Shown here piece by piece: positions 7,839 to 56,821 of a DNA stretch of 64,000 bases; positions within the stretch are counted from its first letter, which is position 1; each line of letters starts with the position of its first letter. The position numbers and the translations under genes are program-made. The stretch is taken from positions 5,763-69,762 of the forward strand of contig CASEVQ010000002.1 in assembly GCA_949291455.1 (NCBI GenBank), given 5' to 3'. The notes beneath the pieces are model-generated. The model was not told the origin of the DNA. It ran no database searches and saw nothing but the letters and a program-made list of their open reading frames with translations. This DNA is from an uncultured bacterium (lineage in GTDB: Bacteria; Bacillota_I; Bacilli_A; RF39; UBA660).

Positions 7839-7879
7839 TAAATGTTCCTCCTTTCTCTTAAAAGGTCATTTACGACCTA

Positions 7880-9117: not shown

Positions 9118-9132
9118 TTCTTACACCTCTCA

Positions 9133-9660: not shown

Positions 9661-9741
9661 CAAAACAATCTATTTTTAAACAAAAAGGTTGAAATAATGT
9701 TTAAAATATGTTATATTTATACACAAGAAAGGAGTTTTACT

Positions 9742-22772: not shown

Positions 22773-22776
22773 TTAT

Positions 22777-36700: not shown

Positions 36701-36821
36701 TATGGAATCAGAAATAGAAATATTGAAAGAAAAACTTTCAAAGTATCAAAAAATAAAAGAAGCCATGATGGAGGACTTATTAACTGGCAAAGTGAGGTTA
36801 AGTTATGAGCAGGATAAATGA
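33768..36821 (+). CDS. hsdM: Type I R-M methyltransferase HsdM fused to a half HsdS (one TRD)
   Basis: GQFYTP, YDMTCGSGSLL, VANPPF, NLNIPRY; the C-terminal ~215 aa is W..VKIGD...KKGDIFL...IPLDINEQAEIG...MMEDLLTGKVRL, an HsdS TRD plus conserved helix. Confidence 0.92.
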   Translation: MPVKKSVLYSKLWDSCNTLRSKGGMDATQYKDYVLIVLFMKVITDKYYHQNDSLIDVPDDANFNTMISLKGKKNIGEEFNKILAKIAEENDLQNVIDVVDFNDENKLGKGKDMIEALTGLVEVFQDPELDFSNNRADDNDVLGDAYEYLMKKFASEAGKSKGQFYTPSEVSRIMSKILKISESKKSPIEVYDMTCGSGSLLIKAGDETPENLKVYLYGQEKDTNTAGLCVMNMFLHGNATAQIKVGNTLTNPQFLENRKVRTFDFCVANPPFSVKKWNTDLTTDNNYDRFTGFGTPPNNCGDYAFLLHMLKSMDPVTGRGAIILPHGVLFRGGQEELIRKNLLKSGFIEGIIGLPSNLFYGTGIPACIIILDKKDANDRKNVFMIDASKFFVKDGNKNRLREEDIRKITDTYLNKTEIEHYSKNVLITDIEKEEYNLNIPRYIDSSDEEVIQDIKAHLFGGIPKANIDKLSEYWDIAPKLKNKLFNNNERDGYLDLMVDKDSINEEITNSEEFINYSVELSKKVNSWEQDNKNVLYSISKNSRAKDIINILADTILKDFTDGKLIDKYEAYEFLMEYYNDTMKDDIYLIIENGWIPKIVYAQDKKGKIKENEFDSDLLPKEIVINEYFKNENDNIVKLNNDLNDLSQEFDSMVEENTGDEEIFNDEDKVSEKLIKDKIKEESDENIAILNKLLENLSFQKEIKNNIKKYQKALNILIIDKYNSLDEDTSKDLIIIKKWFKSIERTFNDKYEDLIYDLSNKIINEYENYENTLSQLSEKTSNLESLVLKDLERMDFESNKQKLLNNKKRNGKWKNVKIGDIGVFDGNGVDKTINEKEKKVRLLNYMDIMHNDFIYDNMSKHFVTASERKYNKCLVKKGDIFLTPSSETRKDIGVSAVALEDSDDLVYSYHIVRFRPTIDMDMKFRAYLFQNQKFLNQASKYCEGSGKRYVCSNKKFASFELEIPLDINEQAEIGRVLYDMESEIEILKEKLSKYQKIKEAMMEDLLTGKVRLSYEQDK

Positions 36822-39800
36822 ATTAGAAGTAAAAACTCAAGAAAGATTATTACATAAAGTGTTTGAAGAAAAACTTGATTATACTTATCTTGGTAATTTT
36901 GAAGATAGAGAAAATAATTCAAATATTGAAGAAGAATTACTTTTTAAATTTTTAATAAAGAAATATCCTGAAGAATTAGCTCGTAAAGCAATTGCAGAGT
37001 TAAAAAAGGTGGCTCATAATGAAACTAAATCATTATATGAAGTTAATAAAGAAGTTTATGAGTTATTAAAATATGGTAAAGGTATTACTCTTTATGTAGG
37101 TCAAAAGGAAGAAAAAATATATTTTATAGATTACGATAATTTTGATAATAATGGTTTTTATGTTGCAGAAGAAGTAACTTATAGAGGTCAAAATGAGAAA
37201 AGACCAGATATAGTTGTTTACATAAATGGTATTGCTATTGGTGTAATTGAATTAAAAAGAAGTACTGTCTCTATAAATGAGGGAATAAGGCAAAATCTTG
37301 ATAATCAAAAGCCTATATTTATTGAAAGATTTTTTACAACAATTCAATTTATTGTAGCAGGGAATGATTCAGAAGGTTTAAAATATGCAACAACATTAAC
37401 TCCGGCAAAATATTATTTGCCATGGATTGAGGATTATAAAGCTATAGGAAAGTTACATGAAAAAGTAAATAATCTTATTGATAAAAATGACTTGTTGATA
37501 GATCAACAAATATCATCATTATTTGAAAAGGAAAGATTGCTTGATTTATTGGATAATTTTATTGTATTTGATGGTGGTATTAAAAAAGTGCCAAGATATA
37601 ATCAATATTTCGGTGTAACAAATGCCAGGGAATTTGCAATGAAACATGAGGGAGGAATACTATGGCATACTCAGGGATCAGGCAAATCATTGTCAATGGT
37701 CTTAATTGCAAAATGGATATTATCCCATATTGCTAATTCAAGAGTATTAGTATTCACTGATAGAAAAGAATTGGATAAGCAAATTAAAGATGTGTTTGAA
37801 AATGTTGGAGAAAAGATTCATAGAGCAACAAGTGGTAGCGATTTATTGCAATCTTTAAATGAATATTCAAAAGGCAGATTAATATGTTCTTTAATACATA
37901 AAGTAGGGAGTTTTGTAGATGAAGAGTCAGATAAAAATTATTCTGAATATGTAAAAGAACTAACAAAATATAAAAACGAAAATTTTTTAGCAAAAGGAGA
38001 TCTATATGTATTTGTAGATGAATGCCATAGAACTCAAGCAGGTTTATTACATGATGAAATGAAACGATTATTACCTAATGCAACATTCTTTGGTTTTACA
38101 GGAACACCATTGATGAAGAAATCAAAGGCAACTACATTAGAAAAATTTGGTAAATATATTCATACATATAAATTCGATCAAGCAGTAAAAGATGGTATTG
38201 TTGTTGATCTATGTTATGAATCAAGAAATATAGAACAAAGAATAAATAATAAAGCTAAAATTGATGAATGGTTTGAAGCTAAAACTGCTGGATTAAATGA
38301 ATATGCAAAACAAAAGCTTAAAGAAAGATGGGGAAATCTTCAAAGTATTACTAGCTCTGGTAGTAGATTAGAAGAAATTGTTAAGGATATTATCTTTGAT
38401 TTTGAAAAGATACCTAGACTTGAACAATGTAAGGGAACTGCTATGTTAGTAGCAAGTTCAATATATGAAGCTTGTAGATATTGGGAAATTTTTCAATCAA
38501 AAGGATTTGATAAATGTGCAATAATATCATCATACTCACCATATATAGCTGATATAAAGGGTGAAGAAGATGGTGAATTTACAATATCTGATAAGCAAAA
38601 AATCTTTGAAGTATATGATAAAATGTGGAATAAAAATAAATACTCTAAATTAAGAAGTGATAATGAATATGATGATTATACTCAATGCTTTGAAGACGAT
38701 GCAATTCATAAGTTTATTAATAGTCCATCAGAAATGAAAGTACTTATAGTTGTGGATAGACTTTTAACAGGTTTTGATGCTCCTTCTGCAACATATTTAT
38801 ATATTGACAAGAAAATGCAAGATCACGGTTTATTTCAAGCTATATGCCGTGTAAACAGGCTTGATTCAGGCAAAGATTTAGGATATATAGTTGACTATAA
38901 AGATTTGTTTGAAAATATTGAGGGTGCTGTAGAAGATTATACTAATGGTGCATTTGATAATTTTGATAAAGACGATATTACTGGGTTATTGAAAGATAGA
39001 TTAAAATTCGGTAGTGAAAGATTAAATAACGCATTAAGAAAAATTAAATCAATATGTGAACCTGTTGAAAATCCTAAAGGAACACTTGAATTTTTACATT
39101 ACTTTGTTGCTGAAGATTTAGATACTATAAGTGAATCTAGAGAAGATAATTTAAAAAATACTGAAGCAAAAAGAGTTGAATTTTATGATGCCGTATCTGA
39201 TCTTGTTATTGCGTACACTAATATTGCTGATGAGATGACTAAAGCCGGTTACACAAAAGAAGAAATACAACAAATAAAAGAAAATGTTAATTTCTATAAT
39301 AATGCTAGAGATGAAGTTATGAAATCGGCTGGAGATTATATTGAACTTAAGAACTATGATAGTTCAATGAGGTATATGATTGATAATTATATAGGTGCTG
39401 AAACATCAGAATCTCAATATAAATTAGATGAAGCAACATTATTAGACGTGATAGTTGCAAGTGGATTAGATAAGGCAACTGAATCAATGCCTAAATCATT
39501 TAAGAAAAATAAAAAAGCAATGGCTTTAGCAATAGAAAATAATATTGCTTCAACTATTATAAATAATCAAAATCAAAATCCTAGATATTATAGTAAAATG
39601 TCAGAACTTTTAAGTAAATTAATTGAACTAAAAAAGGAGCAAAATCTTGATTATCAAGCTTACTTAGAAAAATTAATTGAACTTGTTAAAAAGGTTAAAA
39701 AGCCAGAATTAAGTGGTCAATATCCTAAATCAATTCATAATGCAAGATTAAGAGGATTATTCGATATTTTGGATAGAAATGAAGAAGAAACACTTGACCT

Positions 39801-39951
39801 TTATAATATTTTAACTAATAATGTACCTAAAGACTTCATGGATTCAAAGATGAAACAAAGAGAATTAAAACTATTATTATCCGTAAAATTAAATGATAAT
39901 TCTAAAGTAGAAGAAATCTTTAACCTATGGAAAAATACAAGAGGGTGTTAG
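36805..39951 (+). CDS. hsdR: Type I restriction endonuclease subunit R
   Basis: RPDIVVYINGIAIGVIELK, WHTQGSGKS, DECHR, GFTGTP, LLTGFDAP, QAICRVNR. Confidence 0.97.
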   Translation: MSRINELEVKTQERLLHKVFEEKLDYTYLGNFEDRENNSNIEEELLFKFLIKKYPEELARKAIAELKKVAHNETKSLYEVNKEVYELLKYGKGITLYVGQKEEKIYFIDYDNFDNNGFYVAEEVTYRGQNEKRPDIVVYINGIAIGVIELKRSTVSINEGIRQNLDNQKPIFIERFFTTIQFIVAGNDSEGLKYATTLTPAKYYLPWIEDYKAIGKLHEKVNNLIDKNDLLIDQQISSLFEKERLLDLLDNFIVFDGGIKKVPRYNQYFGVTNAREFAMKHEGGILWHTQGSGKSLSMVLIAKWILSHIANSRVLVFTDRKELDKQIKDVFENVGEKIHRATSGSDLLQSLNEYSKGRLICSLIHKVGSFVDEESDKNYSEYVKELTKYKNENFLAKGDLYVFVDECHRTQAGLLHDEMKRLLPNATFFGFTGTPLMKKSKATTLEKFGKYIHTYKFDQAVKDGIVVDLCYESRNIEQRINNKAKIDEWFEAKTAGLNEYAKQKLKERWGNLQSITSSGSRLEEIVKDIIFDFEKIPRLEQCKGTAMLVASSIYEACRYWEIFQSKGFDKCAIISSYSPYIADIKGEEDGEFTISDKQKIFEVYDKMWNKNKYSKLRSDNEYDDYTQCFEDDAIHKFINSPSEMKVLIVVDRLLTGFDAPSATYLYIDKKMQDHGLFQAICRVNRLDSGKDLGYIVDYKDLFENIEGAVEDYTNGAFDNFDKDDITGLLKDRLKFGSERLNNALRKIKSICEPVENPKGTLEFLHYFVAEDLDTISESREDNLKNTEAKRVEFYDAVSDLVIAYTNIADEMTKAGYTKEEIQQIKENVNFYNNARDEVMKSAGDYIELKNYDSSMRYMIDNYIGAETSESQYKLDEATLLDVIVASGLDKATESMPKSFKKNKKAMALAIENNIASTIINNQNQNPRYYSKMSELLSKLIELKKEQNLDYQAYLEKLIELVKKVKKPELSGQYPKSIHNARLRGLFDILDRNEEETLDLYNILTNNVPKDFMDSKMKQRELKLLLSVKLNDNSKVEEIFNLWKNTRGC

Positions 39952-39957
39952 ATACAA

Positions 39958-40659
39958 ATGCTAATAAATAACTACAATATAGAAATCAATAAAAAAGATG
40001 TTAAAAATATAAATCTTAAAGTGTATCCTGATTTATCTATTAAAGCATCAGTCCCCAAAAATATGAATATATCTAAAGTGAAAACAATGGTAATTTCTAA
40101 AAATGAGTGGATTAAAAATCAATTAAGAAAATATGAAGAACAAAATCGTATTTCTAAAAGGAAATATGTATCTGGAGAAGATCATTATTTAAATGGGAAA
40201 AGATATATTCTTAGAGTTTATGATTCAAATACTCCAAGTGTTAAAATTGAAAAAAATAATATATTAGCAATGTATGTAAGAAAGTCTTCAAGCATTAAAA
40301 ACAAAGAGAAATTATTAAATGAATTTTATAAGGATAATTTAAAAGTTAAAATTGATAAATTTATGCCTAAAATTGAAGAAAAAATTGGAGTTAAGTCAAA
40401 TAGTTATTTTATCAGAAAAATGAAGAATAAATGGGGGAGTTGTAATACTGACAAAAAAAATATAGTATTTAATCTTGATTTAGCCAAAAAGAAAGATGTA
40501 GAAATTAAGTATGTAATAACACATGAATTAATTCACTTAATAGAAAGAAAACATAATGATAATTTTAGATTACTTGTGAATAAGTATTGTCCTAAATGGG
40601 AACAATATCATGATTCGCTAAATGAAGTATTAAATGATAATAAAATGTTTGAAAATTAG
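39958..40659 (+). CDS. YgjP/DUF45 (M48-like) metal-dependent hydrolase, Type I R-M associated
   Basis: MKNKWGSC and YVITHELIHLIERKH. Confidence 0.9.
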   Translation: MLINNYNIEINKKDVKNINLKVYPDLSIKASVPKNMNISKVKTMVISKNEWIKNQLRKYEEQNRISKRKYVSGEDHYLNGKRYILRVYDSNTPSVKIEKNNILAMYVRKSSSIKNKEKLLNEFYKDNLKVKIDKFMPKIEEKIGVKSNSYFIRKMKNKWGSCNTDKKNIVFNLDLAKKKDVEIKYVITHELIHLIERKHNDNFRLLVNKYCPKWEQYHDSLNEVLNDNKMFEN

Positions 40660-40768
40660 TGAATAAGCAGTAATAAATACAAAAATGTGCTATAATTATA
40701 CATAGATAATAGAGTTACATTTCATTTAATGATGGAGTGTGCTCTATTTTTTGATTGGAGGTGTTAAA

Positions 40769-43700
40769 ATGATTGATAACATTATGTTAGATGTTGAATT
40801 AAAAAAGAAAGATAAAGAAGATATGAAAACTATTGAAATAATACGAGAAGAACTTAAAAATTATAATATGATCGATTTTATAGAAAAAGTTTCGGCTCTT
40901 ATACTTATTCCAGAGAATCAAAGTAAATCAGTTATATTTCAAACAATGATAAGTACTGCTATATCTTTAAATGAGTGCAACTATAATAAAGATAATAAGA
41001 TGAGTTACGGAAAATTCAAGCAATTTGTTTATAAATTCTCTAATTTAAATAAAAAAGTTATGATTGATCCTCCAGAATTTCCATTTGTATTACCAGTTAT
41101 CTATTATGATAATTACTATGTTTTTATGGGTTCTAATTCCTTATCGCCATTATATGTTAATCAAATGTTAAAATTATTTAGTATATATAGTGATAAGTTA
41201 GATCCTACGGAATCCAAAATATTGAAAAAATTAATTAATGGACTGTTGATTATATCAAGCAAAATATTTTTGAAATTAGATATTAATTTTAATGATTTAA
41301 AAAGTTTTAATAAGGATATTGATATAAAGATATTACCTTCCAATATTATGAATAAATACTGTGATATGGTTAAATTTGATACAGAAGAATTAAAAACTTT
41401 GCTAGGGGAAGATTATAGTGACTTAATTATTAATTTTGGTGATATTTCAGTAAATGAAATAAGTAATTTTGACAATCAAAAATTTTATAGAAAACCATTT
41501 ATAATTTCTGATAAGTTCGCAATTATATTAGATGTTACGACTATTATTTCTTTAATAATGAATTTAATTATTAAAAGATTTATTAAATGTAATGAAATAA
41601 ATATATTCACAGAATATAATAAATTAAGTTTACTTAATTTAAACAAAGATTTTTTCAGAATGGGCTTTCAAGAACTTGATCCTAAGACGTTTAGTATCGT
41701 TTTAGATAGAAATGAGAATATTAATGAATCAATATATATTTGTGGAAACGATATTGTATTTTATAATTTAGTCTTATTTGATAACGGACAAAATTATGAA
41801 AACGAACAAAACTATTATCTTGACATTGATAAACACTATATTGCAAAAAGAATAAAATATATATCATCACATCTAAAAAAAGAGAATATAGCTGAAGATA
41901 AGATTATTACAATAATTACTCCAACAACATTAGGAAGAAATATGTATTATATGTTAAGCGTTAATAAAAGTCATAATTTGCTTACATTAAGTCAATATGA
42001 AATAAATGCAATCGCTATTAATGAACAGGATAATTTAATGTTTTTATACAGATATATAAAAGCTAGAAATAGATTAGAACATTACCATAAAAATTTATTT
42101 TCAGAATTAAATATAGTAGCATTATATTCTGAACATGATAATTCGTTTTATTTTAGTGATGATTTTGATACCAAGGAAACACCAATGTATCTAATAGGTG
42201 AATATAGTAGCGATTATATTTTAAAATCATATATAAATGAGTCTTTTCATTTGGCAAAATATAAAAATAGATTTTCTATGATTGAAGTAATAAAACAAGA
42301 TGATAACATTTATTTTGCGCCAGGTTTATTTTTTAATAGACAATTAAATAATCTAATTGAATGTAATAAATTTTTTATTTGGGTATTTAGTGATGAACAA
42401 ATTATCGGAAATCTGTATTCATCTGTGAAGTTAATAATAGATATGATTTCATACTGGCTATCACAATTTTATGATTTTCTAAGTTTAATTAGTGGTGTAT
42501 TCAATATTGTAATCCATTGTGATGACAGTTTAAATATAATTCAATATGATAAAAACGAAAAAGCAGGCGAAATAAAGTTTGTCATAAATAATAATACATT
42601 AGATTTATACTTTATGAAAAATTCTCTTAAATATTTTGATGATAATGGTAATTCTAAAGAAAAGGAATTTATTTTTAATATTATTAATTATATTTGTGAT
42701 GAATATTGTATAAATATAGATCCAAATCTTATAGATAAGAAATTTGAGAATACCTATAAAAAGAAAATTATAACTATGAATTCTCTAGAAGATGCTTATA
42801 TGTTGCCATTTGATGATCAACCTCTTGTAAAAGTTAATAGTTCTGATATAAATTTAATTTTAGATGACGTTGGATTATTTTTGAAAAATGAGCTAAACAT
42901 AGATTATGGGAAAATAAATGATTATAAAGTTTTAAATCATATTGTTGGATTTCTGTATCATAAATTATTAAATATTGTTTCAAAGTATAAAAAAGAGCAG
43001 TTAATAGATTTCTTATATACTGAATTCGAAAAAAATTTATCATCAATGTTAATTAGGCAATCTAAATATGCAAACGATATAGCATGTTATCCAAATAGAA
43101 AAACGGAAATAAATAATATTATAAATGAATTAAACAGAACATCAGTTGCTTTAAAATTTTTAATTGAACTTGTTGGTTCAACGAAAGTTATTGGTATAGA
43201 AGATATATCTATATATGAGTTAAACTATGCTCTTTCACTTTCATCTACAATAATCGATTTTGCTTATACATGTGATATTTATAATTATAATATGGCAGAA
43301 AATACTTTGACATTATTGAATTCAAATAGGATTGGCTATAATAGAAATTTCTTAAATCGTGTTAATAAAGTACTAAAATCTGCTAAAACGGAAAAAATGT
43401 CTCCTGTTATTAAAAATAAACGTGAGCATATATTTAAATATACAGATATAGCAAAAAAAGAGATTCTTGGATTTGAAGATTCGTTTTTTGAAGAGTTTGG
43501 TTTTATGTTTAATGATTTTACTGAAGTTACTGTTTCATTGCTAGAAATAGCAAAAGATCAAGATAGTACATTAAATAGTGTTTTTAGTTTTACAAGAGAT
43601 GAAATAAAAAAATATATAAATAATTGTATAAGTAATGAAACAATTGATAGTATTATTGACTATCTTTCTCAAATTGAAAGAGATGATTATTTATTACCAT

Positions 43701-44374
43701 CTACTCCCTATAAAAAAGAAGATGTATATCCTTGGCGAAATAATAGAGAGTTGTCATTAAACAGAAAACCGTTGATACAATATAAAGATAAAATAATATA
43801 TGGTTATAGAACCTTGATTAATTCAGTGAATTTTCTCTTTGAAATAATAAATAATGGTACCTTTAAATCTCACAACCCTAAAATGAAAAGATACATCTCT
43901 GAAATTTCAAGAGAAAGAGGAGATTATTTCAATGAACTGGTATTTAATTATCTTTCAAGTTATGATGATTTAATTGTAGATAAAAAAGTGAATAAAATAA
44001 ACAAAAAAAGAATAGTGGATAGTAATAATAAAATTCTAGGTGATATTGACATAATAATTATATCAAAAAGAAAAAAGAAAATTATGATTTGTGAAACCAA
44101 AAATTTTGAATTATCTAGAAATATGTATGAATTACATTTTGAATATAAAGATATGTTTGATCCTAAAAATGAAAAGAGTTTTTATAATAAACATATGAAA
44201 AGAGTAAATTGGTGCAGGAAAAGTATTGATGAAATTAAGAAACATTATAAATTATCAAATACAAATTGGATGATAGATTATTGCTTTATTGTCAATGAAC
44301 CATTAGTTAGTAATAAGGCAATGAAAGCTAATGTGAAAACTTGCACAATAGAAGAATTGGATAAATATATATAA
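40769..44374 (+). CDS. large protein with C-terminal PD-(D/E)xK nuclease-like domain
   Basis: RGDYFNE...GDIDIIII...ICETKN near the C-terminus; RBS GGAGGTG before ATG 40769. Confidence 0.7.
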   Translation: MIDNIMLDVELKKKDKEDMKTIEIIREELKNYNMIDFIEKVSALILIPENQSKSVIFQTMISTAISLNECNYNKDNKMSYGKFKQFVYKFSNLNKKVMIDPPEFPFVLPVIYYDNYYVFMGSNSLSPLYVNQMLKLFSIYSDKLDPTESKILKKLINGLLIISSKIFLKLDINFNDLKSFNKDIDIKILPSNIMNKYCDMVKFDTEELKTLLGEDYSDLIINFGDISVNEISNFDNQKFYRKPFIISDKFAIILDVTTIISLIMNLIIKRFIKCNEINIFTEYNKLSLLNLNKDFFRMGFQELDPKTFSIVLDRNENINESIYICGNDIVFYNLVLFDNGQNYENEQNYYLDIDKHYIAKRIKYISSHLKKENIAEDKIITIITPTTLGRNMYYMLSVNKSHNLLTLSQYEINAIAINEQDNLMFLYRYIKARNRLEHYHKNLFSELNIVALYSEHDNSFYFSDDFDTKETPMYLIGEYSSDYILKSYINESFHLAKYKNRFSMIEVIKQDDNIYFAPGLFFNRQLNNLIECNKFFIWVFSDEQIIGNLYSSVKLIIDMISYWLSQFYDFLSLISGVFNIVIHCDDSLNIIQYDKNEKAGEIKFVINNNTLDLYFMKNSLKYFDDNGNSKEKEFIFNIINYICDEYCINIDPNLIDKKFENTYKKKIITMNSLEDAYMLPFDDQPLVKVNSSDINLILDDVGLFLKNELNIDYGKINDYKVLNHIVGFLYHKLLNIVSKYKKEQLIDFLYTEFEKNLSSMLIRQSKYANDIACYPNRKTEINNIINELNRTSVALKFLIELVGSTKVIGIEDISIYELNYALSLSSTIIDFAYTCDIYNYNMAENTLTLLNSNRIGYNRNFLNRVNKVLKSAKTEKMSPVIKNKREHIFKYTDIAKKEILGFEDSFFEEFGFMFNDFTEVTVSLLEIAKDQDSTLNSVFSFTRDEIKKYINNCISNETIDSIIDYLSQIERDDYLLPSTPYKKEDVYPWRNNRELSLNRKPLIQYKDKIIYGYRTLINSVNFLFEIINNGTFKSHNPKMKRYISEISRERGDYFNELVFNYLSSYDDLIVDKKVNKINKKRIVDSNNKILGDIDIIIISKRKKKIMICETKNFELSRNMYELHFEYKDMFDPKNEKSFYNKHMKRVNWCRKSIDEIKKHYKLSNTNWMIDYCFIVNEPLVSNKAMKANVKTCTIEELDKYI

Positions 44375-45027: not shown

Positions 45028-45056
45028 CCCCTGAAGGATCCATAATGCTCCTTTTT
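45028..45056 (+). repeat. att core (outer right junction) + terminator-like hairpin
   Basis: CCCCTGAAGGA (matches 5015-5025), then imperfect AAGGATC/GCTCCTT stem and T-run. Confidence 0.65.
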
Positions 45057-45179
45057 CACATTTATTTTTTTAGACTATTATTAACTGATGAATTTCTTTT
45101 TTTAGAAAAAAGAGCATATGATATAAAATTTATAAAATGTGATGTATAATATTATAAAAAGATTTGGTGATGTCAATAA

Positions 45180-45830
45180 ATGAAGAATATAAAAAGAAAT
45201 ATTGTATATATTGGTTATGATTCATATTACAAAGATACTCTTAAATTACGTGATACAAAAATAAATAATATTAAACCAAATTTAATTAATATTGATACAT
45301 TAGAAGAACTTGATAGAAAACAAGGATTCTTGTTGTTACTTACAATGGATGAATTATATGATTATTTTCCTAATATAGTAGATATATTTGAACCAGATGT
45401 TTATGAAATTGATAGATATTTGAGAAAAAAGTTTAAAAATTTTGAATACGTAATTGTAATTTCAATTGAAGAGTTTGATTATGGCCATATACCTTTTTCT
45501 AATATGTATGTAGTATTTGCAAATAACTATTTCAATACAGACGAAGGTATTAATGTCTTAATAGATAAAATATCTAAAGAATTTATATCTAAGAAAGAAA
45601 GTAAACTATCAAAAATAAAATGTAATAATGTAGAAAAATTAAGAACTTTTATTAAAAAGTCTAAGAAAGATTTTTTTACAACAGAAGAAATAAAACAAAA
45701 ATTAAATGTAAATGAAAAATGGATTCAAAGATATATGAAAGAAATGAATAATATTTATAATAATATAGGCTATAATAAAAGAAAAAGGTTATGGTATGTT
45801 GTAAAAAAAACAACACGAAAAAATAAATAA
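45180..45830 (+). CDS. protein with C-terminal winged HTH (putative regulator)
   Basis: FTTEEIKQKLNVNEKWIQRYMKEM...IGYNKRKRLWYV resembles HTH_11-type wHTH. Confidence 0.65.
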   Translation: MKNIKRNIVYIGYDSYYKDTLKLRDTKINNIKPNLINIDTLEELDRKQGFLLLLTMDELYDYFPNIVDIFEPDVYEIDRYLRKKFKNFEYVIVISIEEFDYGHIPFSNMYVVFANNYFNTDEGINVLIDKISKEFISKKESKLSKIKCNNVEKLRTFIKKSKKDFFTTEEIKQKLNVNEKWIQRYMKEMNNIYNNIGYNKRKRLWYVVKKTTRKNK

Positions 45831-45943
45831 AAGCAATGAAAAACGTAGAAATACGTTTTATTTTTTTGTCCATCACAAAACACTAGTCCAGCAAAAATTT
45901 TAATTAAGAGTTATAGTTATATCAAGAAAAGGAGGAATAGCAT

Positions 45944-46648
45944 ATGTTAGAGTTTGTTGAAAAACTATTAAGTTCACAAGATAACATTATAGATCAGCTA
46001 AAATTATTAAGAGAAAATAAAGATAATAAGGAGGTTAAGAAATATATGCGAGCTCTTGTTAAAGACAATAACTCGCCATATTTCAAATATTGTATTGACA
46101 AATATTATTTTAATAAAGATGTAAAGGAGGTAAAACCATCAATAAGACCATTAAGACCACTGTATCATTTGAGAAAAACAAAAAAAATACAGAGTCTTTT
46201 AGAATCTAGAAATAATATTATTGATCAACTTAAGTTACTAAAAGAATATAAAGGTACTAAATATGTTGATACTTATATTAAAGAATATTTAGAACTTTGG
46301 TCAAATGAGTACGAAGCTTACTGCATTCAAAAATATTACTATGATATGGATGTTAAAGAAGTAGAACCTAATGCCAAAAGTCTTAATATTACTTTATATA
46401 GAATTTCTTTTAAAGAAACAGAAAGTAAACAAGAAAAAGACAAACAAAATGGTTATGCAAAATCAGTCAAGAAAAACGATAAAATAAAAATACTAGATGG
46501 TCCTTTTAAAAATCAAATCGGAATAGTAAATTCCTTTGATAGAGGTAATTCTAAAATATTTGTTACAATTTGTCTTTTTGAAGAAAAATTTAATATAGAA
46601 TATGATGGTAAGTTTGAAAAAATTAAGGAGGCTAAAAGTGAAAAATAG
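45944..46648 (+). CDS. tandem-repeat protein with C-terminal NusG-type KOW domain
   Basis: Two ~60-aa repeats (LL.S..NIIDQLKLL.E.K...YCI.KYY...DVKEV.P); KNDKIKILDGPFKNQIGIV...KIFVTICLF. Confidence 0.75.
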   Translation: MLEFVEKLLSSQDNIIDQLKLLRENKDNKEVKKYMRALVKDNNSPYFKYCIDKYYFNKDVKEVKPSIRPLRPLYHLRKTKKIQSLLESRNNIIDQLKLLKEYKGTKYVDTYIKEYLELWSNEYEAYCIQKYYYDMDVKEVEPNAKSLNITLYRISFKETESKQEKDKQNGYAKSVKKNDKIKILDGPFKNQIGIVNSFDRGNSKIFVTICLFEEKFNIEYDGKFEKIKEAKSEK

Positions 46649-49319
46649 AATAGAGTTACATGCTAAAACAAAATATAGCATAGACCATGAAAGTACAATC
46701 GATATTAAAGAATTAATATTAAAGTGTGCCAGTAATGGTGAAAAAGGTGTAGCTATTGTTGATAAAGATAGCGTCCTTAGTTTTTTAAAAGCAGAGAAAA
46801 TACTAAAAGAATTAAATATAAAAAATTTTAAATTAGTATATGGAATAGAAGTAAATGTTTTTATTGAAAAACTAACTTATAAAGCTGTAATTCTATTAAA
46901 GAAAAGAAATGGACTTTCCACACTATATAGAATGTTATCCCCTTACTTCACTAATAATAAATTACTATTAGAAGATTTAATGCTTAGTAAAAAGAATTTT
47001 ATAATTGGTTTAATATATGAACAAGACAATTATAATTCTAATATATTACAATATTTTAATTATGTAGAAGTAGATGATAAAGTATCTGAAGAAGTAATTG
47101 CCAATTTAAAAAGAAAGACTTTAGTAGTTTACTCAAATAGAATTAATGCCTTATCAAAAGATGAAGAATTAAGTAAAAAAGTTCTTTATAACAAATTACA
47201 TATAAAAGAAAAAATTGATACTAGAATCTATAAAAGTACACAAGAAATTTTAAAACAGGTAAAAGATATGGAAATTGTTATTGATAACCCTAATAAAATA
47301 TTTAATATGATAGAGAATTTCAACTTGTTAGAAAATAACATTTATTTACCTGTAGATGATAATTCATATATTGATTTGTTAGTGAATACTAAACTGAATG
47401 AAAAATATAATAATGATATTCCGTTGAAAGTAAAAAAACGTATTGAAGAAGAATTGAAACTTATTAAAGAACATAATTATGAAGGATTCATTAATTTATA
47501 TAAAAAAATAATTGATAAGTGCAAAGAAGAACAGGAAGAATATGTTATTTGTGATTACATTAATTATTTATATATTGCTTATTTACTAGGAATAACACAT
47601 TTTGATCCAATAAAGCATAATCTAAATTACGAACTTTTTTTTATCAATCATCCCAAAATCACCATTAAAATATCACCAGAATTTGTTAAAAAATTAAATA
47701 TTTTTATTAAAGAAGAACTAAATGTTAATATGATTAGATGTAAAGGATTGATGAGATTAAATAGTAGTAATGTTAAAAATATAATTAGTGATTATGAGAA
47801 AAAATATAATATTAAAATCTCTACTTCGGATAAGTTACTTATAAATAAATATTTAATGAATTATCCAATTAATAATTGGGCATTAACTCCAAAAAAATTT
47901 ATATTACCTGCTGGTGTTAATATATTTGACTTATCACCCCGTGAGCTTATAAAAGAAGATGATTCATATCATAGAGTTACAAATATGGATTATAAGGATA
48001 TTGAAGAAAATTTTATAACATTAGAATTAATATCAACCGATAAATTAATGCATTTAATGGAATTGAAAGACATTACTAAAGATAAGATAATTAATTGTAA
48101 CTATAAAGATAGTAATATTATAAAAAGTGAAGCTTTTCAAGATTATTTAGAATCTTATCAAAAAGATATATTATTGGATGATTTATATGAAGATTGCTTA
48201 AATAGCAAAATTGATTTGATTGAAATATTTAATATAATTAATGAAATAAAGCATGAAAAAAATATTTCTAATAAAACTAAGAAAATATTGACTAAAAACA
48301 ATATAGTAATAAACGACAAGAATGCTAATTTTATTTGTATAGGCATATTAAATGAAAGAACTAGATTAGAATATGAACTATTGTATTTTAAAAAATATTA
48401 TCCATTAGAGTACTATTATGTTTTATTAAAAGATTGTCCTTTTAATGATGTTATAGACATTATAAAAAATGGTTATGAAGAGGTTAAAAATAGAATTAAA
48501 GATTATTCAAAATATAGATATGAACATAAATATTTAAAGTTAGTAGCAAAGTTATATGAATCAAATATTAATTTTTCTATTGAAGAAAGAGAAATAGTAG
48601 AAGATTATTGTTTTGAATTAGATAAGGAAAATAAAAAAATAGTTTTAATAACTAATAAGACAAATAATGAAATTTATAAATATTTATCTAATAATTTATC
48701 TGTAATAGGAACAAGACCAATAAATGGAAAAATGCCTTATATGAGTAAAATAATCGCTAAATTAATAAGAATTAATAAAGATGTAATATTGTTTGGATTA
48801 GATGGAAAAACTAATTTTTATTTAGAATATCTATTATCTGAAATAACTAGAATAGATAGAAAAGCAATTAGGCAATATTTAAATCCATGTTCTTGCTATA
48901 AGGATAGTATTTTAACAATCGATGAAGAAAGTTATATTAATGGAATAAGATATTTGTTATATCATAATTTAACAATAAAAGATTACCATAATGTTAAAGA
49001 TATTATTATTGATGATGTTAATGTTAACATGATGATAGATAAATTAATTTATATGATTGAAGAGAGTGAAAGTAAAGTAATAATCATTGATAGAGTTGAA
49101 TCTATAGACGGTAATATTAGTAATACTTTAGAAAGAATAAAAGAAATTGCTAAATTAAAAAAACTTAATATTATACTTTTTACAAATCTAAAAAAAGAAT
49201 ATGAAGAATCTAACAAAAAGGATATATCTTCGTTTGAAAATAATGAATTGTTGGATAAATATGTTGATTATATAAATATTTTAGATGGTAAAGAGTTATA
49301 TCATATAAAGGAAAAATAA
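46638..49319 (+). CDS. degenerate PolC-like (PHP + palm) protein fused to a degenerate DnaB-like ATPase domain
   Basis: RIELHAKTKYS, VAIVDK, KLVYGIE, KRIEEELKLI, IAYLLGITHFDP and LYFKKYYPLEYY track PolC; LSVIGTRPINGK...IIIDRVESI...IAKLKKLNIILFTNL tracks DnaB. RBS AAGGAGG before GTG 46638. Confidence 0.8.
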   Translation: MKNRIELHAKTKYSIDHESTIDIKELILKCASNGEKGVAIVDKDSVLSFLKAEKILKELNIKNFKLVYGIEVNVFIEKLTYKAVILLKKRNGLSTLYRMLSPYFTNNKLLLEDLMLSKKNFIIGLIYEQDNYNSNILQYFNYVEVDDKVSEEVIANLKRKTLVVYSNRINALSKDEELSKKVLYNKLHIKEKIDTRIYKSTQEILKQVKDMEIVIDNPNKIFNMIENFNLLENNIYLPVDDNSYIDLLVNTKLNEKYNNDIPLKVKKRIEEELKLIKEHNYEGFINLYKKIIDKCKEEQEEYVICDYINYLYIAYLLGITHFDPIKHNLNYELFFINHPKITIKISPEFVKKLNIFIKEELNVNMIRCKGLMRLNSSNVKNIISDYEKKYNIKISTSDKLLINKYLMNYPINNWALTPKKFILPAGVNIFDLSPRELIKEDDSYHRVTNMDYKDIEENFITLELISTDKLMHLMELKDITKDKIINCNYKDSNIIKSEAFQDYLESYQKDILLDDLYEDCLNSKIDLIEIFNIINEIKHEKNISNKTKKILTKNNIVINDKNANFICIGILNERTRLEYELLYFKKYYPLEYYYVLLKDCPFNDVIDIIKNGYEEVKNRIKDYSKYRYEHKYLKLVAKLYESNINFSIEEREIVEDYCFELDKENKKIVLITNKTNNEIYKYLSNNLSVIGTRPINGKMPYMSKIIAKLIRINKDVILFGLDGKTNFYLEYLLSEITRIDRKAIRQYLNPCSCYKDSILTIDEESYINGIRYLLYHNLTIKDYHNVKDIIIDDVNVNMMIDKLIYMIEESESKVIIIDRVESIDGNISNTLERIKEIAKLKKLNIILFTNLKKEYEESNKKDISSFENNELLDKYVDYINILDGKELYHIKEK

Positions 49320-49320
49320 G

Positions 49321-49992
49321 ATGGACAAGGTTAAAGAATATATTTTAAACAATAAGATTACACTTGTTATTACTTCACCAAACTCAAAAATTTTATCTAT
49401 TATTAATTTACTAAATGAATTATCAATTAAAGGAAAATATAAGACTATTTTATTCAGTTTTAACATTAGCTGTAATTATTATTTACAAAAGTTAATATCA
49501 TTTCTATCAGGCATTAACAATAGTATAATCACAAAGTATTTTTATCCATATGTAATAAATAGTAAAAAGAATAGAGATAAGATTAATCGTAATAAATTTA
49601 TTGATTCATTAGAAGAAATACAGAGTAGCAATATTTTAATGAATAGTGAAAAATATGCTGTTGATAAAGATTATTTAGATTATATTCTAGATTACTCAGA
49701 AAGCAATGTGTTAATAATTGATGATTTTTATGCATTACTAGATAAGACAAAGTATAGTCTAGATGAAATATTAATAAAAGTAAAAGAGAAACAAGATATT
49801 CATTTAGTTTTGTTTATAAAGACAAAATATAAAGAAAAAGTAGTAAGACAATTTGCCGAAGTAATAAGAAATTATATTTTTATAGATGGATTTAATTATG
49901 AGGAATATAAAGAGATAAATATTAATATTTTAAATAAAACATTCAAATTGCAATTCAATAAAATGAATCAAATAATGAAGACAAACGATTAA
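49321..49992 (+). CDS. second, more degenerate DnaB/RecA-fold-like protein
   Basis: Similar to the C-terminus of the upstream protein (TILFSFN...NYYLQKLISFLSGI...KYFYP versus VILFGLD...NFYLEYLLSEITRI...QYLNP); LIIDD Walker B-like, no Walker A. Confidence 0.6.
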   Translation: MDKVKEYILNNKITLVITSPNSKILSIINLLNELSIKGKYKTILFSFNISCNYYLQKLISFLSGINNSIITKYFYPYVINSKKNRDKINRNKFIDSLEEIQSSNILMNSEKYAVDKDYLDYILDYSESNVLIIDDFYALLDKTKYSLDEILIKVKEKQDIHLVLFIKTKYKEKVVRQFAEVIRNYIFIDGFNYEEYKEININILNKTFKLQFNKMNQIMKTND

Positions 49993-50111
49993 GAAAATTG
50001 ATAAATTTGAAAATATATTGTAAGAGTTTATATTATTAAAGAGCATTGGAGTTTTTAAGAAAAGTAAGGGCTGATATGCTATACTAAGATTAGTAAGTTA
50101 GAGGTGAGTAT

Positions 50112-51347
50112 GTGAAATTAAAAATATTAAAAGGTACTAGTGAAATAGGTGGATGCATAACAGAAATAGTAAGTAATAAAGGAACAAGGATTATTATTGA
50201 TCTAGGCGAAGATTTACCAGATGATAATGTATCAAAATGTGAAAATCCAAATATTGATGGCTTAACTATAGGTGATAAAAAGTATGATGCAGTTTTTATT
50301 ACACATAGCCATGGTGATCATATTGGTCTAATAAATTATGTGTTAGATGGTATCGATGTTTATGTTGAACCTACTTCCAAAATAATATATAGTTTATTAT
50401 CTACTTTTACACATAAGAAAATAAAATTTAAAACTAAAGATATGTTTTTTAAAAAAAAGATAATAATTAATGATGATATAATTGTGACACCATATATTGT
50501 TGATCATTCATCATATAATTCATCAATGTTATTAATTGAGGCTGATGGCAAGAAGGTACTGCACACAGGAGATTTCAGAAATCATGGAGTTAAAGGTAAA
50601 TTGTTTGTACCAACACTAAAAGAAATTGGAAATGTTGATATAATTGTAACTGAAGGAACTTCTTTAAGTAGAGGTAATGTTAAATATAAAACAGAGGAAG
50701 ATATAGTTAAAGAAGCCAAAAGGGTATTTTATAACTATGACCAAGTTTTTATTTTACAATCATCAACAAATATTGATCGTATTAGAGGTTTTTATAAAGC
50801 AGCAACCGCAACTGACAAAAATTTTATAGAAGATCTTTTTACTTCAAATATAACAGTTTCTTTAAAAAATGATTCTATTCCTAATCCTAAAACATTTAAT
50901 GATGTTTATACATGGATACCAAGAAGATATCTAGACAAATCGTTTAGGTTTAAGAAAAAGTATTTGTTTCCTTTTTTGAAATATAGTAAGCAAAAATCTT
51001 ATGTTAATAATAAATATGCATTAATGGTAAAGACATCAATGATTGAAGACATAAAAAAACTATATAATAAAAATCATATTACTAATGCGTGTTTAGTATA
51101 TTCAATGTGGGAAGGATACAAAGAAAAAGTAGAAATGAAAACCTTTTTTGAAGAGGTGAAGAAATATGGAATTTCTGATATAATAAACATACATACTTCA
51201 GGTCACGCTGATAAAGAAACTCTTGGTTTATTAAGTTTTCTTAAAGCAAAAAAGATAATTCCTATTCATACGATTAAAAAAGAAGAATTATCCAATATTT
51301 TAGATAATGTTTATTTATTAGATGATAATGAAACATTAGATGTATAG
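50112..51347 (+). CDS. MBL-fold beta-CASP (RNase J-like) nuclease
   Basis: EIGG, THSHGDH, DHS, TGDFR, EGT, STNIDR, HTSGHA, PIH. Confidence 0.9.
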   Translation: MKLKILKGTSEIGGCITEIVSNKGTRIIIDLGEDLPDDNVSKCENPNIDGLTIGDKKYDAVFITHSHGDHIGLINYVLDGIDVYVEPTSKIIYSLLSTFTHKKIKFKTKDMFFKKKIIINDDIIVTPYIVDHSSYNSSMLLIEADGKKVLHTGDFRNHGVKGKLFVPTLKEIGNVDIIVTEGTSLSRGNVKYKTEEDIVKEAKRVFYNYDQVFILQSSTNIDRIRGFYKAATATDKNFIEDLFTSNITVSLKNDSIPNPKTFNDVYTWIPRRYLDKSFRFKKKYLFPFLKYSKQKSYVNNKYALMVKTSMIEDIKKLYNKNHITNACLVYSMWEGYKEKVEMKTFFEEVKKYGISDIINIHTSGHADKETLGLLSFLKAKKIIPIHTIKKEELSNILDNVYLLDDNETLDV

Positions 51348-51350
51348 AAG

Positions 51351-52790
51351 GTGATATTTATGGATAACATAAGTAATTTAAATATTAGTGGTATTGCTAA
51401 ACAAGTTATTAAAAGATATCTTGGTAAAAAAGATTATGTTATAAGAATTAGAGTAAATAAAAAACACAAAGTAGAAATTGTTGTATATTATGAAGGAAGA
51501 AAATCATTTGAAGTTAAAGACAATAAGTTATTGTTAGATGGTGCTTATTTCTTCACTAAAGGAAATAAAAAAATTGCACATTCTATGGAGATGGAAATTG
51601 CTTGTTTAACTAAATTAGGTTTTTCATTTAAAATTGGTGCCAAGATTGATTCTACTAATCAATATTATAAAGATGGATATAGATATCGTATTTTTGTAGA
51701 ACCTTCTAGTGCTAAAAAAGGATCTAAAGAATGTTATGACAATTATAAAGAAGAAATAAAAGAAAGAATGGAAGTTATTTTAGAAGCTTTAAAAAGATAT
51801 GATAATGATTTTATATATCATTATGATAATGAAACAAATATAAATAGTTTTTATACTAAAAAAGTTGATAATACTATTAATTATTTTAAATTAAATGAAT
51901 TATTAAAAATAGGTATAGATAACACTGTTAAACAAAAAGGCATTAAGAAAATCAAATTTAATGAAAAATTGGTTGGTTCCCAAACGACCTATACTGAAGA
52001 AGAATATAGAATAATAGATTCTATTATGGAAAATAGAATTAAGACATATAATTTTGGAGTTCTTTTAGAAGAAAATAAAGAAGAATATATCGATAACAAT
52101 GAAAAAATATATCAACAATTACTTATGAACAAGATGTTTGATAAAAACGAAAGAGAACAACTTTTCAAAGTGGATAATTGTCCTTTTAAAGATAGCAATG
52201 CATATGAAATGGAATATAACTTATATGCTGCAAATAGAACTAATCGTAAACAGAAAACAAAAAAAGGAAGAGTAGATAATATATTTATCAGTGGTAATAA
52301 GATTTTATTTACTGAATTAAAATATGACGAAAAAGTTATTGGCGGTACAAATGGAATTCATAAGCATTTAATTGATTTAATTAATGGATTTGAAAAAAAT
52401 GATGAAGCTTTATCTGAAATATATGACTATATATGTGATTACAATGATGTGTTAACTTATATTAATGATAAAGAAGAATATATTATTAAAAATGTGAAGA
52501 GATTTAATGACAAAGAAGTAGAAAGAGAATTTATAATTATATGTGGATATTCAAACAATAAAAGAGATATTGTTTATAATGAATTGGAAAGAGTTTATCC
52601 ACTAACAGGAAAAAATGCTGAAGTAGAAAAATCATATAATATATTTTTAGATAATAAAAAAATCAATTTAGAGAATATGACTACTGAAGAGTTGATTTAT
52701 TTACTTAAAAATAGATATCATTGTGAAACTAAGATTTTCTTAGTAAATAATAATTATACTAAATTTGAAATATATCAAAAAAAAGTATAG
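51351..52790 (+). CDS. putative PD-(D/E)xK nuclease
   Basis: YEMEY...GRVDNIFISGNKILFTELKY...GIHKHLID. Confidence 0.65.
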   Translation: MIFMDNISNLNISGIAKQVIKRYLGKKDYVIRIRVNKKHKVEIVVYYEGRKSFEVKDNKLLLDGAYFFTKGNKKIAHSMEMEIACLTKLGFSFKIGAKIDSTNQYYKDGYRYRIFVEPSSAKKGSKECYDNYKEEIKERMEVILEALKRYDNDFIYHYDNETNINSFYTKKVDNTINYFKLNELLKIGIDNTVKQKGIKKIKFNEKLVGSQTTYTEEEYRIIDSIMENRIKTYNFGVLLEENKEEYIDNNEKIYQQLLMNKMFDKNEREQLFKVDNCPFKDSNAYEMEYNLYAANRTNRKQKTKKGRVDNIFISGNKILFTELKYDEKVIGGTNGIHKHLIDLINGFEKNDEALSEIYDYICDYNDVLTYINDKEEYIIKNVKRFNDKEVEREFIIICGYSNNKRDIVYNELERVYPLTGKNAEVEKSYNIFLDNKKINLENMTTEELIYLLKNRYHCETKIFLVNNNYTKFEIYQKKV

Positions 52791-52879
52791 AGTATGTAAA
52801 TATGAAATCCTTTCATGATAACAAAATAATCTTTGATAGAAAGTGTATAAAATACAAATAAGTGATGATTATTTGAACT

Positions 52880-52909
52880 GTCAATGCGTTAAGCATTGAC
52901 TATTTTTTT
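52880..52909 (+). terminator. intrinsic terminator
   Basis: GTCAATGC-GTTAA-GCATTGAC plus T-run. Confidence 0.75.
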
Positions 52910-53330
52910 AATTACTTTAATAAAATATTACTTTTTTTAATAAAGATGTTATGATAATTATTACCAAGACTATTTTTAATAAAAGGTAAAAAAATTAGTA
53001 ATGTTTTAATTTGAAGTTTTCATATAAGAATAAATATTTGATTTATAATTATTCAATTAATTTTTCAGCAAACTATAATTTTTATGATTTAAAGTATATA
53101 ATAAGTCTTGATAAATTATATAAAATTCTTATAATTCATTATCTAAATTAATTGATAAATAAACAATGTTTCTTCCTATAATTATCTGTTTTATTTAAAT
53201 TTCCTATAATGACATTTTCAATAAACGTTTCGAATCAATAGTAATGTTGCATTTTAAGTTTAAATTAGAATTTATAATATCTTTACTTAATTTAATCATA
53301 ATGATAAAATTACTATGGTGATGATTAGTT

Positions 53331-55117: not shown

Positions 55118-56821
55118 TTGATGGGGACTATTAGAGAATTTATGGATCAAGCTGAAGGAGGAAAATTAATATTACCATCTATACAAAGAGAATATGTATG
55201 GAACGAAGAACAAATCTGTAGACTATTTGATTCAATAATGAGTGAATATCCAATTGGTCATATGATGTTGTGGAAATTAGATGGAAGTAAAATAAATGAA
55301 AAAGGGATAACATTTTATAAATTATTAAATAATTATAATGAAATGATTCCAGAAAACAATGAGAAACTTGAAAACCCATCACCTGATAAAACTTATTTTG
55401 CTATATTAGATGGACAACAAAGAACACAATCATTATATATTGGTTTAAAAGGTTATTTAAAATTAAAAATATATAGAGCACGAAAAAATAATGTAGAATC
55501 CTATAAAAATAAATATTTATATATTAACTTAATAGGAGAAGAAAGTGAACTTGATGAATATAAATATGAATTTAAATTTTTTGCCGATGAAGAATTAAAA
55601 AACAAAGAAAATGAAAATAAATTTTTCTTTAGAGTAGGCAAAATATTGCAATATGATAGATTACCTAATATAAATGATATCGAAAATATTAAAAATATAC
55701 AACTTAATGATGAACAAAAAAGAATAGCTCAAGATATTTTATTTAATTTATATCAAAAAATAAATGTTAATGACAGTATACTTCATTGGGATATTATTTC
55801 AAGTGATAAGTCATTGGATAATGTATTAAATATTTTTATAAGAACTAATAGTGGCGGAACTGTATTAAGTAAAACAGATTTATTATTTTCTACTGTTGTA
55901 GCTAATTGGGAAGATGCAAGAAAAAATATTGAAGAGTTACTTGACAGAATTAATAATAAAGGTGGGCAAGGAGTAAGATTTAATTTTACAAAAGATTTTA
56001 TTATGAGAACTCTTATGTATCTATTGGATGAACCTGTAACATTAAAACTTAATGACATAAAAGATAATATACAAAGCATGAGAGAAAACTGGGAATTATT
56101 AAGTAGTGCTATTTCAAAAGCTCCATCAGTATTAAAATATGCTGGATATAATGGAGAAAATTTAATTTCATATAATGCAGTTATGCCTATAATATATTAT
56201 ATATATAAAGGAGGATTTTTAAAGAAAACTGACACAATAGATTATAATCCTATGGAAGAACTAAAAAAATATTTAGTAATTGCTCAAATGAAAAAATTAT
56301 TTGGAGTTGCAAGCAATAATACTTTAACTAATGTTAGAAATGCCCTTATTGACAAAAATAAAAAATTGCGTAATAAATATTTTAAACTCAATGATTTAAA
56401 TAATGTTAATATTGTAGGAAACAGAGATTTCAGTGTAAACGATGAAATAATTGAATCGTGGTTTGAAGAAAATAAAAATGACTATACTTTTATGATTTTA
56501 ACATTGCTATATCCATGTGCTGATATTGAAAAAGTTAAATATCATCAGGATCACATGCATCCAGAGTCTAAATTAAAAAACAATCCAAAATTTTACAATC
56601 TAAGAAATCGTTTAGCAAATCTTCAATTGCTTCCCGGAGATGAAAATGAAAGTAAAAACGACACAGACTTGGAAGAATGGTTAAACTTAGACAATGATAG
56701 ATTAAAAAATACAAGGTATCTACCAGAGTGTTCTAAAAAAATTGAAGATTATGAAATTTTTTTGGAAGAACGAAAAAAGTTAATGAAAGAAGAATTATTA
56801 AAAATTTTAAAAATTAATTAA
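55118..56821 (+). CDS. GmrSD-like DUF262 + HNH (DUF1524) protein
   Basis: LPSIQREYVW, LFDSI..YPIG, ILDGQQR, FIRTNSGG; C-terminal DHMHP...NLQLL...N.SK. Confidence 0.88.
   Translation: MMGTIREFMDQAEGGKLILPSIQREYVWNEEQICRLFDSIMSEYPIGHMMLWKLDGSKINEKGITFYKLLNNYNEMIPENNEKLENPSPDKTYFAILDGQQRTQSLYIGLKGYLKLKIYRARKNNVESYKNKYLYINLIGEESELDEYKYEFKFFADEELKNKENENKFFFRVGKILQYDRLPNINDIENIKNIQLNDEQKRIAQDILFNLYQKINVNDSILHWDIISSDKSLDNVLNIFIRTNSGGTVLSKTDLLFSTVVANWEDARKNIEELLDRINNKGGQGVRFNFTKDFIMRTLMYLLDEPVTLKLNDIKDNIQSMRENWELLSSAISKAPSVLKYAGYNGENLISYNAVMPIIYYIYKGGFLKKTDTIDYNPMEELKKYLVIAQMKKLFGVASNNTLTNVRNALIDKNKKLRNKYFKLNDLNNVNIVGNRDFSVNDEIIESWFEENKNDYTFMILTLLYPCADIEKVKYHQDHMHPESKLKNNPKFYNLRNRLANLQLLPGDENESKNDTDLEEWLNLDNDRLKNTRYLPECSKKIEDYEIFLEERKKLMKEELLKILKIN

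Follow-up and report, generated by a model that had tools for sequence, protein, structure and literature searches.

The 64,000-nt stretch analysed here (the window), from the genome of an uncultured RF39 bacterium of the gut, carries a cluster of six co-oriented open reading frames, g1 to g6 (positions 45180..52909), in which two nucleases with conserved motifs accompany proteins that derive from the replication and transcription machinery and have lost their catalytic motifs. The cluster is a real, undescribed gene system whose function is only predicted, and it is probably a system of defence against viruses. All six genes reported by a preliminary description of this DNA are present, as listed here.

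45180..45830, + strand: g1, α/β N-terminal domain with a C-terminal winged helix-turn-helix (HTH) (HTH_11, E=2e-4; family alignment)
45944..46648, + strand: g2, two helical repeats with no assigned family and a NusG C-terminal KOW domain (profile, structure comparison)
46638..49319, + strand: g3, PolC core (PHP, palm, fingers) without catalytic motifs, to which a degenerate DnaB C-terminal RecA-fold domain is fused (Pfam, fold, motif reading)
49321..49992, + strand: g4, second DnaB-like domain without Walker A (homology to DnaB_C-positive relatives)
50112..51347, + strand: g5, β-CASP metallo-β-lactamase (MBL) nuclease, motifs intact; core gene of the family (hidden Markov model, alignment)
51351..52790, + strand: g6, PD-(D/E)xK-type nuclease with invariant motifs and no named family (alignment of relatives)

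The host genome (1.09 Mb, ~25 % GC, 88 % complete) has its own full-length PolC with the motif PDIDLNF, a DnaE, a 451-aa DnaB-type helicase, an SSB (single-stranded DNA-binding protein) and a ClpP, so that g2 to g4 are extra copies. A conserved dead PolC–DnaB fusion coupled to nucleases is surprising whatever its role.

Two nucleases and their replisome-derived partners

The metal-binding residues of g5 (HxHxDH, H132, D154, E181, H365 and H386) are invariant in 17 of 17 relatives, as expected of the β-CASP MBL with intact metal motifs that had been described. Its MBL and β-CASP motifs are common to RNase J and aCPSF1 (FttA), but the 411-aa protein lies far under the family cut-offs (61 bits against 400–820), has no RNase J C-terminal domain and belongs to a separate, patchy family; the host has a separate 550-aa MBL. 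The assignment of g6 to the PD-(D/E)xK-type nucleases follows its catalytic pattern, E...D...(D/E)xK, which is present and kept as E...GRxD...ExK...H..D across 29 relatives, with E251, Q255, E288, GRxD309, E322-x-K324, H339 and D342 invariant or found in 27–29 of the 29. Searches with g6 matched no named family, and a sequence profile search gave no solved relative; the leads are an Atlas match to REase-ARP/PDDEXK_13 at 0.88 and a weak PDDEXK_9 match in one relative.

In g3 Pfam matches PHP and the DNA polymerase III α palm (DNA_pol3_alpha), and with a structural model (pLDDT, the predicted local distance difference test, 72) Foldseek finds PolC (3f2c, E=2e-28) as well as DnaB C-terminal domains. 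The PHP–palm–fingers fold and its order are thus shared with PolC (PDB 3f2b/3f2c, 9qpc), but the catalytic triad is absent: relative to the host PolC, PDID has become PKIT and KLDIL has become TLELI, so that the three catalytic aspartates are not kept. Of the PHP ligand positions examined, four are changed (the second His of HxH, the His of TDH, the Cys of GSxC and the His of DVH), and g3 scores 63 bits with the PolC family model, whose cut-off is 873. Neither the exonuclease nor the OB domain is matched by Pfam in g3, nor was the clamp-binding motif Qxx(L)F found there, and unlike PolC the protein ends in a DnaB-like domain.

That domain has the RecA fold of the DnaB and G40P helicases and keeps the P-loop Lys and the Walker B Asp, but its Walker A motif reads GKM (Thr/Ser lost), the catalytic Glu and the arginine-finger region are gone, and there is no N-terminal domain or collar. 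The earlier reading of g3 as a PolC-like/DnaB-like fusion stripped of its catalytic motifs is therefore upheld. The same losses are seen in 15 full-length homologues (49–98 % identity). Invariant residues surround the PHP domain (H8, K10, D16, D42, E71 and N167), together with the P-loop Lys, and in 16 of 16 g3 proteins the P-loop G-x-R-P-x-N-G-K does not vary. The likely start is the GTG at 46638, giving 893 aa, since homologues are 886–900 aa long and GGAGG lies just 5′; g2 and g3 then overlap by 11 nt and g3 and g4 are 1 nt apart, in agreement with the reported overlapping or abutting of these genes. The product of g4 has no Pfam match and entirely lacks Walker A, but shares 34 % identity with neighbours that Pfam recognizes as DnaB_C in a relative; the RecA fold is assigned by Foldseek for g3 and by this homology for g4, which fits its description as a second DnaB-like remnant.

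In g2 two helical repeats (residues ~5–70 and 82–147) precede a KOW domain that matches NusG by profile (E=4e-10) and 2xhc by structure (VIA Z=10.2, root-mean-square deviation 1.0 over 55 residues), so that it too is the repeat protein with a NusG-like KOW domain that had been proposed. It is without the NGN domain, the RNA polymerase-binding part of NusG, in place of which the N-terminus is an all-helical tandem repeat, and it scores 25 bits with the NusG/LoaP/UpxY family against a cut-off of 136. Profile and fold searches of the whole of g2 assigned no family to the repeats, all of the matches there being to the KOW domain, and a profile comparison of g2 with g3 gave no similarity.

The expectation that no known defence model would describe these genes holds for PADLOC: its 2.0 models gave no match for g1 or g3 to g6 and one weak NsnC match (E=2e-4) for g2, none of them credible, and no real match for 19 g6 relatives. 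A literature search found no description of the gene set, with most subscription papers outside its reach. The available text of a 2026 polymerase survey recognizes four C-family groups, none of which resembles the cassette copies, although its supplements could list such proteins (PMC12926913).

Distribution, fusions and selection

The distribution of the family is patchy, with a g5-type MBL in 21 of 400 family genomes and, in a phylum sample, in 4 of the 398 genomes that were scored. All 21 family-genome neighbourhoods were read. In 12 of them the MBL is 41–69 % identical to g5; six of these have an adjacent Pol-like gene, two a Pol fragment fused to the MBL and followed by a degenerate exonuclease, one two DnaB-like genes only, and three nothing recognizable. 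The other nine (33–35 % identity) constitute a sister clade that is mostly within integrase elements (L037–L044, L150), with a gene for a short SSB 5′ of the MBL gene in every case (more degenerate in three loci) and one for ClpP 3′ of it in all eight where the contig continues; three loci encode a protein that has the g2 repeat and no KOW domain.

A scan of species genomes gave 535 stretches, from which the best 79 loci were kept and dereplicated at 95 % to 68, a sample that leans to the clade of g5 because only the best were kept. A Pol-, DnaB-, KOW- or exonuclease-derived gene lies within seven co-oriented genes of the MBL in 42 of the 68 loci, a host-derived mimic being present in 24 of the 34 that are well flanked. 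A g6-type nuclease occurs in 40 (at most 49 if other candidate nuclease clusters are included, in part of which the motif was seen), nuclease and host-derived neighbour together in 26, and g1 in 24, with gene order freely shuffled among loci. The co-conservation of mimics and nucleases on which the preliminary description depended thus holds, down to ~30 % identity.

Fusions provide added support for functional coupling. The g5 family has 1048 representatives at E<=1e-30, a count that may include other β-CASP proteins, and we scanned the 36 long proteins among the best 150. Inactive Pol III α is fused to MBL in three layouts, from both PolC-like and DnaE-like sources: a Pol palm fragment–MBL (L028, L029, L067), a PHP–Pol–HhH–MBL closer to PolC (P0050) and an MBL–Pol closer to DnaE (P0112), catalytic motifs being lost in the last two. 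The MBL is fused to a g6-like domain in four of the 36, and in one case each an FtsZ C-terminal domain or an AAA ATPase is attached (P0119, P0096); the remaining proteins have extensions without an assignment.

More distant relatives are found on plasmids and in viral sequence collections. A Butyrivibrio plasmid carries genes for WYL, a PD-(D/E)xK-like protein, MBL, dnaX and two degenerate Pol III α proteins; a Pol-like gene is absent from the other five of the six plasmid loci read, and three of the six distant plasmid MBL genes lie beside restriction–modification (R–M), DUF262 or WYL genes. Two of 11 IMG/VR loci have a Pol-like gene, one of them (L140) with DnaB-like, truncated PolC, MBL, g6-like and g1-like genes, and no MBL relative was found in an annotated phage collection.

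The mimic genes are maintained by purifying selection, yet evolve fast. Between the window and a related locus (L045), the ratio of nonsynonymous to synonymous substitution rates (dN/dS, Nei–Gojobori) is 0.28 for g3 (903 codons, dS 0.26; PHP 0.24, palm 0.31, DnaB part 0.30), 0.31 for g2, 0.36 for g1, 0.18 for g5 and 0.41 for g6, compared with 0.05 for host polC in another pair. DnaB-like genes of other loci give 0.19–0.31 at moderate distance, while pairs of g4 show too few changes or are near saturation. The claim of selection rather than decay on the mimic genes thus passes this test, with ratios of ~0.3 for g2 and g3. Two further loci (L109:4481-14089 and L111:4419-14098) have a cassette without a Pol copy whose end lies directly upstream of the genome's single full-length polC, possibly a 'guard' version; between them the cassette genes have dS 0.18–0.27 and the adjoining polC 1.25, a difference that indicates horizontal exchange of the cassette and points to movement of the block as a unit. 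There is no mobility gene within the block, and relatives lie on integrative elements.

Several other cassette genes are of note. One locus (L020:7956-15719, in genome G013) has two cassette types in tandem, with a g3-type copy that ends after 491 aa. Macro domains are found inside cassettes (L066:5404-5925, L105/L114, L088:5496-7460), with a DarT/DarG-like pair beside one, and there are recurring genes without Pfam matches (L032, L033, L054, L073, L105, clusters c9–c12, c28 and c31; L024:4903-5589) that are possible further mimics.

A predicted defence role and the alternatives

The view of the cassette as a virus-defence system draws on the intact nucleases, the partners stripped of chemistry yet under selection, the fusions, the fast evolution, the patchiness and a private regulator; we infer the defence role itself from the patchiness, the mobility and the types of effector. 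How it might operate is a more tentative matter. The mechanism that we favour, though with a little less than even confidence, is that of an inducible, mobile anti-phage cassette in which repurposed replisome parts gate the nucleases by bait and release. The core would be the β-CASP nuclease g5, usually with the PD-(D/E)xK nuclease g6, and the Pol III α core, one or two DnaB RecA folds and the NusG C-terminal domain would have been kept for their surfaces rather than their chemistry. These pieces would most likely be in a complex with the nuclease, as the fusions suggest, and would restrain it. Phage proteins whose usual effect is to recruit or block the polymerase, the helicase or a Nus factor of the host would bind the copy instead, freeing the nucleases to cut RNA or DNA and so abort the infection, and g1 would control transcription of the downstream genes through a TGTC box.

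Phages hijack Nus factors. According to one study, phage SPP1 employs PolC, DnaE and primase of its host, whose replication is blocked by the SSB of the phage (PMC3561973). Bacteria are known to have decoy immunity, an example being Ronin, which is linked to R–M (10.1101/2023.04.06.535777, PMC12409349). As far as the available parts of these sources go, Ronin (10.1101/2023.04.06.535777) and PARIS, PrrC and Panoptes (PMC12409349) resemble the present proposal in tying an inactive copy of a phage-targeted host component to a toxic effector, but what they mimic or guard belongs to defence (HsdMS, nucleotide signals); the cassette has copies of essential replication and transcription proteins, several together, and no sequence relation to them. 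If this is decoy immunity, it takes the idea beyond defence proteins and into core replication and transcription, opens bacterial detection of replisome hijack to direct test with a six-gene construct, and offers baits for phage inhibitors of PolC and DnaB, both of which are antibiotic targets. A broader proposal, which we consider rather doubtful, is that the MBL family is an 'integrated decoy' platform in which one nuclease effector repeatedly gains copies of phage-targeted host proteins and fires when they are bound. Its baits, as neighbours or fusions, would comprise PolC, DnaE, DnaB, the NusG C-terminal domain, a DnaQ-like exonuclease, SSB, ClpP, DnaX and, once, the FtsZ C-terminal domain. 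Were it true, this would be the first immune system to guard the replisome itself by mimicry, and the set of baits would be a list of host targets of unknown phage inhibitors.

The decoy interpretation of the preliminary description is borne out in part, through the co-conservation, the purifying selection and the Pol–MBL fusions, and a number of observations weigh against it. A role as adaptors, or in sensing nucleic acids, would fit just as well. Housekeeping genes flank most loci, and a defence-type gene is among the two nearest outside neighbours in 7 of the 68 loci, a weak signal counted without a control (17 of 133 flanking proteins had PADLOC matches at E<=1e-10, of which nine, namely ABC ATPases, plain HTH proteins and a methyltransferase, were discounted). 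A polymerase partner is missing from many MBL loci, and 26 of the 68, some of them cut by contig ends, have no recognized host-derived neighbour at all. The ClpP beside the sister-clade MBL retains its Ser–His–Asp triad and looks active. Among 35 dereplicated cassette polymerases (three poorly aligned short rows having been dropped), 27 lack both catalytic motifs and two keep one, but six retain all three aspartates, as does the truncated PolC of L140; the dead state is therefore not universal and maybe not ancestral, and the module may have started from a PolC core that was truncated but active, and in which catalysis later became dispensable. The cassette copies are ~16–30 % identical to real PolC and do not nest among host PolCs, so that an inhibitor of the real enzyme may have ceased to fit them. 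Finally, the occurrences of the Pol partner are dispersed over the MBL tree (16 gains or losses, the shuffled mean being 18.3, with L140 wrongly scored as lacking it), which makes this partner an exchangeable accessory.

In a polymerase tree, from which 11 short or near-identical rows and rows of <170 aligned residues were excluded, the cassette copies have long branches and fall outside the clade of host PolCs, with the triad-keeping copies nearer to that clade. Recent repeated capture from host polC is accordingly unsupported.

Of the alternatives, the one that fares best, although we think it unlikely, is defence by targeting, in which the Pol core and DnaB folds would bind replication intermediates such as primer ends, forks and single strands or join the phage replisome, and KOW would dock on transcription complexes, so delivering the nucleases to foreign nucleic acid. 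The invariance of the P-loop among g3 proteins and the retention of the polymerase triad in some family members are as this alternative would have them, the fusions suit tethering as much as gating, and the archaeal FttA–Spt5 complex (title of PDB entry 9bct) is a precedent for a β-CASP nuclease with a NusG-family partner. However, g3 has neither the OB domain nor the clamp motif that hold PolC on DNA, g4 has no Walker A and the DnaB arginine-finger region is deleted.

A damage-inducible repair or mutagenesis cassette like ImuA–ImuB–DnaE2, with dead RecA-fold and polymerase subunits as scaffolds, a β-CASP nuclease that processes ends and an endonuclease, is improbable. In the descriptions available, the mutasome is an operon of dead RecA-fold and dead polymerase scaffolds and so resembles the cassette and establishes the use of inactive scaffolds; truncated PolC cores with the triad do exist, there is a dedicated HTH regulator with a promoter box, and many loci lie amid housekeeping genes, two of them directly 5′ of the only full-length polC. 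The dead polymerase of the mutasome is nevertheless of the Y family, by those same descriptions, and its C-family enzyme is active, with no nucleases or KOW domain. Among the six window genes, where the C-family protein g3 is dead, there is no Y-family gene, nor was such a partner seen among the neighbours scanned. Judging from the motifs no subunit in the window should be able to synthesize DNA, most cassette polymerases lack both motifs, a NusG KOW domain has no role in a mutasome, and the fast evolution, shuffling and 5 % prevalence suit conflict systems better.

We give little credence to metabolite sensing, by which the degenerate PHP, palm and P-loop would be nucleotide-binding sensors that signal to the nucleases how a phage alters the (d)NTP pools. 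NTP-sensing defence with PHP or ATPase parts occurs in Ppl and Gabija, and invariant residues ring the PHP domain and include the P-loop Lys, but the KOW and SSB-like partners would be unexplained, and many family members have no PHP or P-loop. Very little, too, recommends a selfish addiction module in which the dead proteins are antidotes that silence the nucleases and the block maintains itself through the death of cells from which it is lost: horizontal movement as a unit and the relatives on integrative elements would suit it, whereas antidotes need no likeness to three host machines, many MBL loci are without the dead proteins, and the block has no mobility gene. Decaying host-gene duplicates lying beside nucleases by chance, for which the one truncated g3 copy (G013) might be cited, are refuted by the selection test (dN/dS ~0.3) and hardly compatible with 15 full-length homologues, the co-occurrence and the fusions.

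Regulation, boundaries and neighbouring genes

Further features of the cluster are as follows.

45028..45179, no strand: left edge of the block common to other genomes, and g1 upstream region (blastn similarity, run X2 contig)
45840..45867, + strand: terminator-like hairpin and T tract after g1 (8-bp stem, -6.9 kcal/mol)
45867..45917, + strand: TGTCC box and, 45 nt downstream of it, a -10-like hexamer; putative promoter of g2–g4 under the control of g1 (comparison of loci)
50077..50085, + strand: extended -10-like site ahead of the two nuclease genes (read from the sequence, by consensus match only)
52880..52900, + strand: final intrinsic terminator (hairpin at the block end)

The g1 product is probably a dedicated regulator of the cassette. 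Its earlier description as a winged HTH protein stands for the C-terminal part, given the weak HTH_11 match; the N-terminal domain may, by eye, be receiver-like, though it had no usable Atlas match and a fold search gave only a designed Rossmann protein (E=0.018). The g1 family is present in 8 of the 400 family genomes, all eight of them also MBL-positive (the search profile was built partly on three of these eight loci), with g1 and MBL on separate contigs in two. Long g1 variants of ~345 aa (L024:285-1331 and similar) carry a further domain at the N-terminus, by eye a possible degenerate P-loop kinase.

The six genes had been thought to share one terminator, but the hairpin with T tract between g1 and g2, comparable to hairpins 3′ of g1 in many loci, argues otherwise, and together with the extended -10 before g5 it suggests that there are probably two or three transcription units. 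Across g1 loci a TGTC(C/G) box sits 31–33 or 44–48 nt 5′ of an extended -10; the combination is found in 20 of 29 g1 loci, compared with 4 of 51 others and 0 of 991 upstream regions of genome G000, in counts of loci that were not dereplicated and with a motif derived from the g1 loci themselves. The copy in the window lacks the TG of the extended -10, and so fails the strict pattern and is not among the 20. The g1 protein is the likely binder of this box. A promoter scan gave 92 sites against 95 expected, and one metatranscriptome run yielded four short low-depth contigs on g3, g5 and g6, although contigs cannot show transcription; another RNA run gave nothing informative.

Similarity by blastn to two other genomes (G002 and G011) begins at 45028/45030, with different genes further upstream, and a contig of run X2 spans 45028–52997 with other flanks. 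In the window the block follows a type I R–M system, YgjP and an Upx-like gene, and does therefore come directly after a defence-rich stretch, as was reported. This stretch (33768–44374) includes a fused methylase–specificity gene (1017 aa), HsdR and YgjP, and a 1211-aa Upx-like protein that scores far under the Upx cut-off. A GmrSD-family gene lies 2 kb downstream of the block (55118–56821; PADLOC HEC-05, E=1.5e-151) and is present in G002 and absent from the corresponding stretch of G011. Elsewhere in the window, integrase, Mob_Pre relaxase, AAA_25 and HTH genes beside recG (5154–10702) mark the edge of an integrative element, and a single run of genes (18492–23857) encodes a radical SAM–SPASM protein, an unknown protein, a UvrD-like helicase, a C39 peptidase and a HAD protein.

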